Source: a virus | Lineage: Duplodnaviria; Heunggongvirae; Uroviricota; Caudoviricetes | Strand: one strand, 5' to 3' | Length of the DNA stretch: 46,608 nucleotides | IMG/VR virus record: IMGVR_UViG_2522572021_000005 | Part shown: one piece after another, positions 21,001-24,000 of the stretch | Layout: each line of letters begins with the position of its first letter | Position numbering within the stretch: the first letter of the stretch is position 1 | Made by a program: the position numbers

Positions 21001-24000
21001 GAACAACTGAAGATGACGGCTGAAATTGTCTGTTCGGTGTTCCGTGTCCCGGCCTACAAGATTGGCGTTGGCCAGCCGCCTTCCAGTGACAACGTGGAGG
21101 CGCTGGAGCAGCAGTATTATTCCCAGTGTCTGCAGACGCTGATTGAGTCCATTGAGCTGTTACTGGATGAGGCGCTGGAAACAGGGGAAAACGAGAGCAC
21201 GGAGTTTGACGTCACCACGCTGCTGAGAATGGACAGCGAACGTCGCATGAAAACGCTGGGTGAATCGGTGAAAAATACGCTTCTCACGCCCAATGAGGCC
21301 CGTAAACGTGAGAACCTGCCGCCCCTTGCCGGCGGTGATGCACTGTATCTTCAGCAGCAGAACTACAGTCTGGAGGCGCTGTCCCGTCGTGATGCCCGTG
21401 AGGATCCGTTCGCGTCTTCCGGGAAAACGTCGTCAGGCACACGCCAGGAGGGCGCGTCTGACGGTAATAAGGCCATAAGCGAAACAGAGCGTGATGCGGT
21501 GAAGGCGATGTTCAGGGGGATACTGCGAAAATGACAGAGCGTGAACTGTCCATTATCCGTGCGCTGGGTGAAGAATTCTCCACGGTGCTGGCGGATTTAC
21601 AGCGCACATTTGAGGGGAAGATGGCCTCGCAGGCACAAGCGTTTGAAGAGAAACTGACTTCCCTGTCGGCGGTATTACAGAAGCATGTGACGGTGGATGA
21701 GGTGCGTCCGGTTCTGCAGGCGATGGTGGATGACGCTGTGGGGCCATTCCGGTACCGCGTGATGGTCGTGATTATGATCCGGATGTACTGCAGCAGGCGG
21801 TGAATGATGCGGTTGCGAATATTCCGGTACCGGCGGACGGCAAAAGTATTACCCCCGATGATGTGCGTCCGATGCTTGAACAGATGGTGAAGGAGGCGGT
21901 AAGCCATATTCCTGTTCCGCGTGATGGTCGTGATTACGATCCGGAAGTACTGAAGCAGGCGGTGAATGATGCGGTTGCGAATATTCCGGTACCGGCGGAC
22001 GGCAAAAGTATTACCCCCGATGATGTGCGTCCGATGCTTGAGCAGATGGTGAAAGAGGCGGTAAGCCATATTCCTGTTCCGCGTGATGGTCGTGATTATG
22101 ATCCGGAAGTACTGAAGCAGGCGGTGAATGATGCGGTTGCGAATATTCCGGTACCGGCGGACGGCAAAAGTATCACCCCCGATGATGTGCGTCCGATGCT
22201 TGAGCAGATGGTGAAAGAGGCCGTAAGCCATATCCCTGCTCCGAGTGACGGTCGTGATTACGATCCGGAAGTACTGAAGCAGGCGGTTCTGGAGGCGGTG
22301 AATGCCCTTCCGGCTCCGCAGGACGGGCGTGATGCCACGGCACTGGAAGTGCTCCCCGCTATTGACGTTCAAAAATCCTTTCCCCGGGGCACGTATGCCA
22401 CACACCTGGGTGGACTCTGGCGGGCGTATGAAAAAACGCACGGGATGCGGGGATGGGAATGCCTGGTTGACGGGGTGGCGGATATCGACGTCAGCATGAC
22501 GGATGAGCGGTTGTTCTCTGTGGTGATCCGGCAGAGCAGTGGCCAGTGTACGGAAAAAACATTTTCCCTGCCGGTGATGCTCTACCGTGGTGTGTTCAGA
22601 ACCGGCGAAATTTACCACCCCGGCGATACGGTGACGTGGGGGGGCTCGTTGTGGCACTGCAACAGCATGACCGGTGATAAGCCCGGTGAAGCCCATTCAT
22701 CAGGCTGGACCCTGGCTGCCAAACGTGGACGGGATGCAGGAGGTGGAAAGTGACAGCATTACTGACACTGGAAGAAATCAAGGCACATCTGCGTATCGAC
22801 CATGACGCGGATGATGAGATGCTGATGGACAAGGTTCGTCAGGCTACCGCCGTACTGCTGGCCTACATTCAGGGCAGCCGGGATAAAGTGATTCGTGAGG
22901 ACGGTGAGCTGATCCCGGGTGAGGCATTAACCCGGATGAAGGGGGCTGCCATGCGCCTGACCGGGATGCTGTACAGGAATCCGGATCTTGCGGAGCGGGA
23001 AGAGCTGATTCAGGGGGAACTCCCCTTTTCTGTATCTGTTCTGATTTACGATTTGCGTTGTCCGACGGTGTTATGAGGAGGGAGGAATGGCAATATCTGC
23101 AGGTCGTCTGACACAGATGATAAGTGTTCTGAACCCGGTGTTAACCCGTAATGCTGCCGGAGAAATGACGGAAGAATGGGTGTCATGCGGGAAAATTCAT
23201 GCGGATATCCGTGGCAGGAGCAGCCGGGAGCGGATGCAGTCCGGTGCGGAAATGGCGCAGGCGGAAATCCGCATCTGGGTGCGCGGTCAGTCCGGCCGGG
23301 AAATCACGGCAGCGTCACGACTTCATGTGCTGAGTGGTCCATGGCGTGACCGGATCCTGAACGTTGTCGGGCTGCCCGTGCCGGATGCGACCGGCGGGCG
23401 TCTGGAAATTCTCTGTCGGCTGGGAGGGGAAAAATGATCGAAACCCTGCTGGATTTTTCGGGGCTGGAGGACATCAGCCGCGATTTGCAGCTTCTGAGTG
23501 GTGCGGAAAATAACCGGGTGCTGCGTGAGGCAACCCGTGCGGGTGCGAATGTGCTGAAAGAAGAAGTGGTGTCACGGGCACCGGTACGCAGGGGAAAACT
23601 GCGCCGCAATGTGGTGGTCCTTTCCCGGTGCTCCCGCGATGGCGGGATGGAATCCGGTGTGCATATCCGGGGTGTTAATCCGGACACCGGTAACAGCGAT
23701 AACACCATGAAGGCGGATAACCCGCGCAATGCTTTCTACTGGCGGTTTGTGGAAATGGGGACCGTGAATATGCCACCGCACCCGTTTGTGCGCCCGGCAT
23801 TTGATGTGCGCAGTGAACAGGCGGCACAGGTGGCGATTGCTCGGATGAACAGGGCCATTGATGAGGTACTGAGACGATGACGGAGGCGGATTTGTATCCT
23901 CATCTGGCACATCTTGCCGGCGGGCAGGTGTACCCGTATGTGGTCCCCCTGCTGGATGGCAGGCCGTCGGTGGCGCTTCCGTGGGTGGTTTTCAGCCTGA

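Follow-up and report, generated by a model that had tools for sequence, protein, structure and literature searches.

A variable in-frame tandem repeat in a conserved portal-adjacent head gene of lambdoid prophages of Escherichia coli

Many siphoviruses carry a MuF gene directly downstream of the portal gene, and in SPP1 the corresponding protein gp7 binds the portal inside the capsid in 1-2 copies per capsid (PMC5576092). The gene described here, referred to as X, takes up the same place in an E. coli prophage that is contained in the IMG/VR virus record IMGVR_UViG_2522572021_000005 (Caudoviricetes), a stretch of 46,608 nucleotides that is called the window. The gene harbors an array of 162-bp tandem repeats. 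This array is a variable repeat in a conserved gene of the head module that is not a portal gene, and we consider it likely that the product of X is an accessory protein of the portal vertex. As a DNA feature the array is less unusual, since in-frame domain repeats that vary in copy number are known in phage structural proteins, such as the BACON domains of crAss-like phages.

Several described systems share part of the features of X. As with SPP1 gp7 and Mu gpF (MuF), the gene lies immediately 3' of the portal gene (PMC5576092), and its product combines a conserved end with a variable extension. The fusion of the two genes in about one third of the E. coli alleles furthermore implies that X resides in the neighbourhood of the portal, and portal binding is putative. 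Unlike in MuF/gp7, the conserved part of X is the C-terminus and not the N-terminus, and X contains acidic helix-loop repeats and a module resembling carbohydrate-binding module families 5 and 12 (CBM5/12) instead of a MuF Pfam domain. With respect to HK97-family portal proteins (PF04860/TIGR01537), X is adjacent, translationally coupled and sometimes fused, but the portal domain ends before the junction. The last ~45 amino acids (aa) of X follow the Y..GD.V.W.G..W......P....W pattern of CBM5/12 modules, although here the module is embedded in a beta-rich domain of ~140 aa, the remainder of which has no match. Like the BACON repeats, the repeat of X consists of whole modules that are duplicated in frame and vary in number between related phages, whereas its module is a short helix-loop spacer rather than a folded Ig/BACON domain and its DNA units are still 95-98% identical. 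Finally, the fused alleles would give the portal a long, largely helical extension pointing into the capsid, comparable to the C-terminal barrel of the P22 portal; the two have no sequence relation, and the ancestral X is a separate polypeptide that ends in a beta domain. The position of X and its probable tethering are MuF/gp7-like, but X lacks the domains of every family whose name it bears and is best described as a portal-associated accessory protein with a distinctive spacer-plus-CBM architecture.

The 162-bp repeat and its variation among prophages

At 21746-22287, Tandem Repeats Finder places an array with a period of 162 and 3.3 copies (96% matches, 0% indels, score 986). In register, the array consists of three full units of 162 bp (54 codons) on the + strand, located at 21746-21907 (unit 1), 21908-22069 (unit 2) and 22070-22231 (unit 3) and together spanning 21746-22231. 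Pairwise, the units differ at 7 (1 vs 2), 3 (2 vs 3) and 8 (1 vs 3) of the 162 nt, which corresponds to the DNA identity of 95-98%. Units 2 and 3 encode an identical 54-aa module, IPVPRDGRDYDPEVLKQAVNDAVANIPVPADGKSITPDDVRPMLEQMVKEAVSH, from which the protein sequence of unit 1 deviates at two residues. Each 54-aa unit is itself composed of two related modules of 25-29 aa, and a weak period-75 signal is also given by Tandem Repeats Finder. On the 3' side, a partial and diverged fourth unit (IPAPSDGRDYDPEVLKQAVLEAVNALPAPQDGRDA; 22232-22333, + strand) joins the array to the C-terminal domain; this unit is near-identical to the others over its first ~56 nt and identical at 93 of 162 positions over the full frame. 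On the 5' side, the array is preceded by a degenerate half-unit, TVDEVRPVLQAMVDDAVG (compare TPDDVRPMLEQMVKEAVSH), which was recognized from the translations at ~21689-21745 on the + strand. An array of such length and identity cannot have arisen by chance.

An earlier note, made from the sequence alone, had described perfect repeats at 21796-22330, with three near-identical 162-bp units, a partial fourth unit and a degenerate upstream copy. All of these parts are recovered here. The coordinates in that note denote the same + strand array read in another phase than the 21746-22231 register, and the word perfect is overstated for units that differ at 3-8 sites. An antisense open reading frame (ORF) of 394 aa (21512-22696, minus strand) also runs through the repeat, but was rejected as a coding sequence because the variation tracks the codon positions of the + strand; the absence of stop codons from one reverse frame of the 162-bp unit is the sole reason why it is open.

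The number of units was compared, as the earlier note had proposed, across 85 related loci, comprising 80 IMG/VR loci together with RM9872, JLK-2012, BP-4795, 2851 and FSL SP-016. Full units number two in 19 loci, three in 53, four in 10, five in one and six in two, giving X proteins of 353, 407, 461, 515 and 569 aa, respectively. This range of 2-6 units agrees with the recent expansion or ongoing copy-number variation that had been suggested from the near-identity of the units. Three units are found in nine near-identical independent assemblies (99.5-99.9% identity) that span the same 1501-1502 bases, which argues that the three-unit count is not an assembly artefact. The unit number is thus stable within a lineage and varies between prophage lineages.

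The units of one gene resemble each other more than those of different genes, with a mean of 8.6 differences per 162 nt within a gene vs 14.2 between genes. In addition, allele-specific residues (V to Q, I to L) are common to all units of one gene, as in an allele in which IPQPADGKSL replaces IPVPADGKSI in every unit. The lower divergence within genes and the shared allele-specific residues indicate that units are homogenised by unequal exchange or conversion, so that the units within an allele undergo concerted evolution. Among 104 distinct units, the minor-allele counts at + strand codon positions 1, 2 and 3 are 188, 104 and 904, and eight of the nine variable sites in the units of the window are at third codon positions. 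This bias towards third positions indicates that the + strand frame is under purifying selection.

With a unit length that is a multiple of three, high identity between units and alleles that differ in copy number, the array is an in-frame variable-number repeat of an ordinary type, and phage structural genes are known to contain such repeats. Because of the unit length and the near-identity of the units, modules can be gained or lost without disruption of the frame, and unequal recombination or replication slippage between units would add or remove whole modules in this way. The two ends of X are unaffected by the repeat, which alters nothing but the length of the spacer between them.

X is a conserved gene distinct from the portal gene

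The gene X covers 21531-22753 on the + strand and encodes a protein of 407 aa if intact; in the window it is divided over two frames. An alignment of 36 Enterobacterales members shows an N-terminal helical segment (MNERELSLIRALGEEF...) of 50-70 aa, followed by a varying number of modules that each consist of a predicted helix and the motif IPxPxDG(K/R)(D/S). The 162-bp unit corresponds to two of these spacer modules, so that a module of 27 aa is doubled to 54. With an isoelectric point of 4.4 and a net charge of -16 over 192 aa, the repeat region is acidic. It is followed by a beta-rich C-terminal domain of 143 aa (22322-22753, + strand) that is nearly invariant across the Enterobacterales, with the consensus DGRDALxLEILPxIDxxKSYPRGxYATHxGGLWRAYEKTHGMRGWEC... 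in its first part and YRGVFxxGxxYxPGDTVTWGGSLWHC...KPGE...GWTLAAKRGRD in its second part, after which a short basic tail ends the protein. The CBM5/12-like module (YRGVF..GDTVTWGGSLWHC..KPGE..W; 22583-22720, + strand) was detected by comparing a profile of the C-terminal domain with PDB sequences. The profile matches the CBMs of chitin deacetylase (E 3e-4), chitinase 60 (5e-3), 2rts (6e-3), 2d49 of chitinase C (0.07) and 1ed7, the ChBD of chitinase A1 (0.1), all on positions 88-133. This profile-level similarity to CBM5/12 includes the aromatic/GD pattern, and glycan binding is putative.

Structure prediction with AlphaFold2 gave a mean predicted local distance difference test (pLDDT) score of 40.2 from the single sequence and 47.7 with the alignment of the 36 Enterobacterales sequences, and only residues ~290-325 exceed a pLDDT of 70. 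Both runs suggest, at low confidence, that the repeats have a helix-loop periodicity and that the C-terminal domain contains eight or nine strands. A Foldseek search of BFVD with this low-confidence model returned one real homologue and weak local matches to phage proteins with collagen repeats and CBM5/12 modules, and was taken as a hint only.

An exhaustive search (E up to 1e-3) yielded a family of 5451 representatives at 50% identity. The 150 with the best scores are mostly 240-560 aa long, while P0123, P0150, and P0187 reach 780-860 aa by many more spacer modules and carry no portal domain. In a subgroup of the family the first half of the C-terminal domain is replaced by a …GNLVVTLTNG…LGxVVGKDAD… segment. 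The portal, connector and MuF Pfam domains are absent from X and from ten diverse family members that were scanned. Specifically, the portal domain (PF04860 / TIGR01537) gave no match in intact X or in the fragments of the window and is confined to 20170-21534; Phage_connect_1 (PF05135) matches only in 22750-23076 and neither in X nor in the ten homologues; and Phage_Mu_F and Phage_min_cap2 (PF04233, PF06152) gave no match in X at E up to 0.1 or in the homologues at 1e-3. A search of X against NCBIfam returned nothing, and phmmer against PDB sequences gave only non-significant matches to designed helical repeat proteins. Many of the family matches carry a precomputed PF28083 tag, which was discarded as a faint QatB match without meaning.

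The surroundings of X are conserved as well. In the window, a prohead protease (S78) fused to an HK97-type major capsid protein (18021-19958, + strand; Pfam Peptidase_S78 and Phage_capsid) precedes an HK97-family portal gene of 454 aa (20170-21534, + strand; Pfam Phage_portal E 6.6e-81, TIGR01537 E 2e-106), and X is followed by a gp6-like head-tail adaptor gene (22750-23076, + strand; Pfam Phage_connect_1). The array gene therefore lies between portal and adaptor, and the assignment to the head region in the earlier note was right. Gene order was compared with that in 38 genome loci of other species, which belong to the alpha-, beta-, and gammaproteobacteria and include Kosakonia, Citrobacter, Enterobacter, Kluyvera, Pantoea, Rouxiella, Serratia, Pseudomonas, Pseudoduganella, Rhizobium, Mesorhizobium, and Phyllobacterium. 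A portal ORF lies directly upstream of X in 35 of these loci, the exceptions being one contig fragment, one remnant and one probable chance match. The same protease-capsid fusion is located upstream of the portal in 33 loci, and X is followed by a gp6-like adaptor in 30. FSL SP-016, BP-4795 and an ENA contig likewise have portal, X and adaptor in this order. The order of protease-capsid fusion, portal, X and adaptor, with overlapping stops and starts, is fixed, and X is a distinct protein under selection and not a portal gene.

The different parts of X are not equally conserved. The N-terminal segment is the least conserved and is undetectable outside the Enterobacterales. Compared to Pseudomonas, the C-terminal domain has 61% identity, vs 50-53% for the portal, 49-50% for the protease-capsid protein and 33-39% for the adaptor; compared to Pseudoduganella, these values are 60% for the C-terminal domain, 44% for the portal and 38% for the capsid. 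In Rouxiella the C-terminal domain (65%) exceeds the portal (50%) but not the capsid (71%). For most Enterobacterales the domain is about as conserved as the portal, and in alphaproteobacteria it matches over part of its length with 41-53% identity, similar to the portal.

The copy of X in the window is frame-broken, as the earlier note had recognized. Two ORFs, 21531-21803 and 21800-22753, lie in different frames, of which the second is open from 21746. Alignment with RM9872 and JLK-2012 locates the break at 21740-21743 (+ strand), where the window has four G residues (G4) and its relatives have five (G5); the missing G shifts the frame, and a fifth G restores one protein of 407 aa, as in the intact orthologues of RM9872 and phage JLK-2012. 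The break lies upstream of unit 1 and is not caused by the repeat. It is the only difference from RM9872 over 4.7 kb (19845-24563). RM12581 and RM13514 of E. coli O145:H28 match the region with 100% identity; their records (NZ_CP007136.1 and NZ_CP006027.1; 5585611 and 5585613 bp) have the locus at identical coordinates and, as they differ by 2 bp in total length, count as one observation. With a 91-bp probe against 982 E. coli records, G4 was found only in RM12581 and RM13514 among the matches listed, and all other matches listed are one base longer with 98.9% identity, as expected for G5. The confinement of G4 to these two records marks it as a private homopolymer contraction, which either arose by mutation in a prophage that was already defective or stems from a sequencing error in the homopolymer.

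That the repeat number or the frame break is an artefact of assembly or sequencing is a possibility to be weighed, although we think it rather less probable than a biological origin. It draws on the near-identity of the RM12581 and RM13514 records, on the presence of two one-base homopolymer deletions in genes (the G-run at 21740 and an A-run at 25055) in the 7.5 kb aligned with RM9872, and on the several more genes across the window that the annotation pipeline PGAP marks as frameshifted. For the copy number, such an origin is contradicted by the three units in nine other assemblies and in 53 of the 85 loci; for G4, the same G5-to-G4 contraction in one unrelated IMG/VR locus (L076) may speak against it.

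The A-run deletion at 25055 relative to RM9872 disrupts a tail chaperone gene. RefSeq furthermore calls a cro-like, a fimbrial, a tail assembly chaperone and a tape measure gene of the prophage frameshifted, the flagged areas being 25002-25375, 25729-28969, 6900-7126, and 10061-10593. These frameshifts reflect either a decaying prophage or homopolymer errors in the assembly.

Separate and fused forms of portal and X

A second G-run is located in the last codons of the portal gene (21515-21519, + strand), where the window reads TTC AGG GGG ATA CTG CGA AAA TGA. The portal stop TGA (21532-21534) overlaps the ATG start of X (21531-21533) as ATGA, and the GTG start of the adaptor overlaps the TGA stop of X. 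With five G residues in the run the two ORFs are separate; fused alleles carry six (G6), which places the portal in frame with X and yields a fusion of ~860 aa. Among 86 E. coli-type loci, 56 are split and 30 are fused, and fused database proteins read through as ...AVKAMFRGDT(A/E)KMTERE.... The split form is also present in BP-4795, JLK-2012 and Salmonella phage FSL SP-016, and the fused form, as one ORF of 859 aa, in phage 2851. Identical flanking haplotypes are found in both states, which indicates that the change recurred repeatedly or spread by recombination. Genera other than E. coli have AGAGGA or a similar sequence at this site and are always split. The AGAGGA site provides Arg-Gly codons and, ~11 nt ahead of the ATG, may also serve for ribosome binding. 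In 16 of the 20 junctions inspected, the start of X and the stop of the portal overlap as ATGA. Since all 35 genome loci outside E. coli with the portal upstream of X have two separate genes, the separate arrangement is ancestral and the fused ORF derived. Judging from these sequences, the slippery G5 run was acquired in the E. coli lineage. Together with the run at 21740-21743, two short G-runs within 230 bp give recurrent frame changes.

The location of X in the slot after the portal, its coupling to two 12-copy vertex proteins and its fusions to the portal C-terminus point to an accessory protein of the portal vertex. The fusions (30 of 86 loci, and phage 2851 among the fused forms) place the N-terminus of X beside the C-terminus of the portal, which in solved portals faces the capsid interior. 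The earlier note had considered a decoration or injection-related role for repeat-containing head proteins. We propose that X is a low-copy protein with its N-terminus anchored at the inner (crown) side of the portal, much as SPP1 gp7 and other MuF proteins from this gene slot are held by their portals, and that the spacer repeats would set the distance of the conserved C-terminal domain from the portal. As the C-terminal domain is conserved across E. coli, Pseudomonas, and Pseudoduganella, it would have a constant partner rather than a host-specific receptor. This host-invariant partner may be a component of the virion or a universal glycan, for example peptidoglycan after ejection.

Several points weigh against this proposal. 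The literature search returned nothing on X, and presence in the virion, copy number, location and ligand are all inferred. The Pfam CBM_5_12 model stays below its gathering score of 26.2 bits, as the window protein scores 15.9 bits and five homologues score 21.9-24.8 bits, and the helix-loop picture is read from the secondary-structure pattern of two models that are both poor. A CBM5/12-like tip, and the GXY tails of some relatives, are typical of external fibres and fit poorly with an interior location. The fused alleles, finally, could be inactivating mutations in dead prophages instead of tolerated fusions.

The main rival to the interior portal-vertex model is an external fibre of the neck or collar (whisker), with its N-terminus at the junction of portal and adaptor, a length set by the repeat and a tip that binds a surface glycan. 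We regard this as unlikely. Such a protein would resemble fibritin of T4, the gene of which also adjoins the neck genes, and the gene X likewise lies between portal and adaptor. The middle of X is modular and variable in length, its end module is of a carbohydrate-binding type, the weak Foldseek hits include phage collagen-repeat and CBM5/12 proteins, and the tip of X has weak PHROG tail-fibre matches. In the distant family members P0124, P0128, and P0150, collagen-like GXY tracts follow the C-terminal domain; the X of the window, however, contains neither a GXY triplet tract nor a heptad coiled coil. Phages normally vary most in their receptor-binding tips, whereas the tip of X is more conserved than portal or capsid in Pseudomonas and Pseudoduganella, and more conserved than the portal, though not the capsid (71%), in Rouxiella. 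The fusion of X to a portal C-terminus that faces the interior, in 30 of 86 loci and in phage 2851, is also difficult to combine with an external fibre.

A more far-reaching version of the portal-vertex proposal appears doubtful to us. According to this version X would represent a new class of portal-tethered head proteins that replaces MuF/gp7 where the protease is fused to the capsid protein. A CBM-type beta domain would then be held inside the capsid on an adjustable acidic spacer and act after ejection, for example on peptidoglycan, and in E. coli the hypermutable G5/G6 run would serve as a switch between free X and X that is covalently linked to the portal.

Current annotation treats X as a part of the portal. 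PGAP labels portal and X together (20170-22753 of the window) as one pseudogene, "phage portal protein, frameshifted", and does the same in RM9872 (1771-4355 of locus L002), although both ORFs are intact there. GenBank phage records name X a second "portal protein", as does phrog_1289 ("portal protein", 331 positions), which covers X only, while phrog_2271 (859 positions) covers portal and X, with X at positions 455-859. NCBI names for homologues in other genera are "gp6-like head-tail connector", "portal protein", and "Carbohydrate binding domain". Taken at face value, these names make X the true C-terminal half of the portal, with the fused ORF of 860 aa as the functional form and the separate form as a frameshifted pseudogene. 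The single "frameshifted" coding sequence that PGAP gives even where both ORFs are intact, the fused 859-position profile of phrog_2271, the many fused database proteins and the annotation of phage 2851 with a single 859-aa portal would be in line with this. Nevertheless we hold it to be highly improbable, and the comparative data have already largely refuted it. Portal and X are separate in 35 of 35 loci from other genera, mostly with an ATGA-type overlap (20 junctions) and without a G-run, and also in FSL SP-016, BP-4795, and JLK-2012; most family representatives are too short to contain a portal domain, which is also absent from all ten that were scanned; and the fusion requires a G5-to-G6 insertion in a run that is found only in the E. 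coli lineage. In the window, the TGA at 21532-21534 ends the portal, so that X and the portal domain are not in one polypeptide. Because PGAP uses a fused reference, its "frameshifted" call on the split form is an artefact, and the portal name of X is a carry-over from the fused alleles.

It is equally improbable that the G-run is a programmed -1 frameshift or slippage site that makes both the portal and a portal-X fusion from one allele, with G5/G6 shifting their ratio. In favour of such a site, slippage of the glycine tRNA by -1 at G GGG in G5 would yield the junction FRGDTAKMTE of G6 alleles, a codon that E. coli uses rarely (AUA) comes next, and the run is present in all 86 E. coli loci. 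Against it, C AGG GGG AUA deviates from the canonical X XXY YYZ heptamer, the nearest hairpin lies ~21 nt downstream instead of 5-9 nt and lacks significance (z -1.74, with 12 of 200 shuffles folding equally well), and the other genera have AGAGGA and no G-run, leaving such a site without conservation beyond E. coli.

Prophage context and implications

RefSeq annotates the region as a lambdoid prophage with an integrase, Q, two tRNAs and terminase, head, and tail genes, followed by nleL and espN. The closest phage records are long-tailed phages that convert their host to Stx1a, Stx2a, or Stx2c production (BP-4795, JLK-2012, YYZ-2008, 2851, and 1717). In the interval between Q and the small terminase gene (14248-15736) only tRNA-Ile and tRNA-Arg are annotated, whereas stx and the genes for holin, endolysin, and Rz are absent from the annotation. 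Lambdoid phages usually carry their lysis module here; in this prophage it seems to be missing, and the prophage is probably unable to lyse its host alone. As cargo typical of prophages in enterohaemorrhagic E. coli (EHEC), the prophage carries nleL and espN, two type III effector genes that follow the tail fibres (37578-43918), and the adhesin gene paa in the early region (10754-11512). Two other, shorter tandem repeats are present in the window. A 45-bp repeat at 36723-36813 (two copies, 86% matches) encodes collagen-like GPQGPKGETGAAGP triplets and sits inside a gene for a tail-fibre N-terminal domain (35778-37091). A 23-bp repeat at 6315-6359 (two copies, 86% matches) is intergenic, placed between 5852-6151 and a helix-turn-helix repressor-like gene (6416-6823), and could be an operator or regulatory element.

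The repeat of X has practical consequences. The 2-6-unit length polymorphism can tell apart EHEC prophages that are otherwise near-identical, and the array will break short-read assemblies. Pseudogene counts and "defective prophage" calls that are based on the annotation of portal and X are inflated. A family of thousands of proteins is misnamed "portal protein", "gp6-like connector", or "frameshifted portal pseudogene", while its members have neither the portal nor the connector domain. In EHEC the family is found in lambdoid prophages, Stx-converting ones included, and it also occurs in prophages of alpha-, beta-, and gammaproteobacteria. The C-terminal domain of X is the best-conserved piece of the head genes compared in distant genera, which makes it a good target for structural work on the portal vertex, and the natural fusion of X to the portal hints at which structural proteins adjoin each other in the virion.

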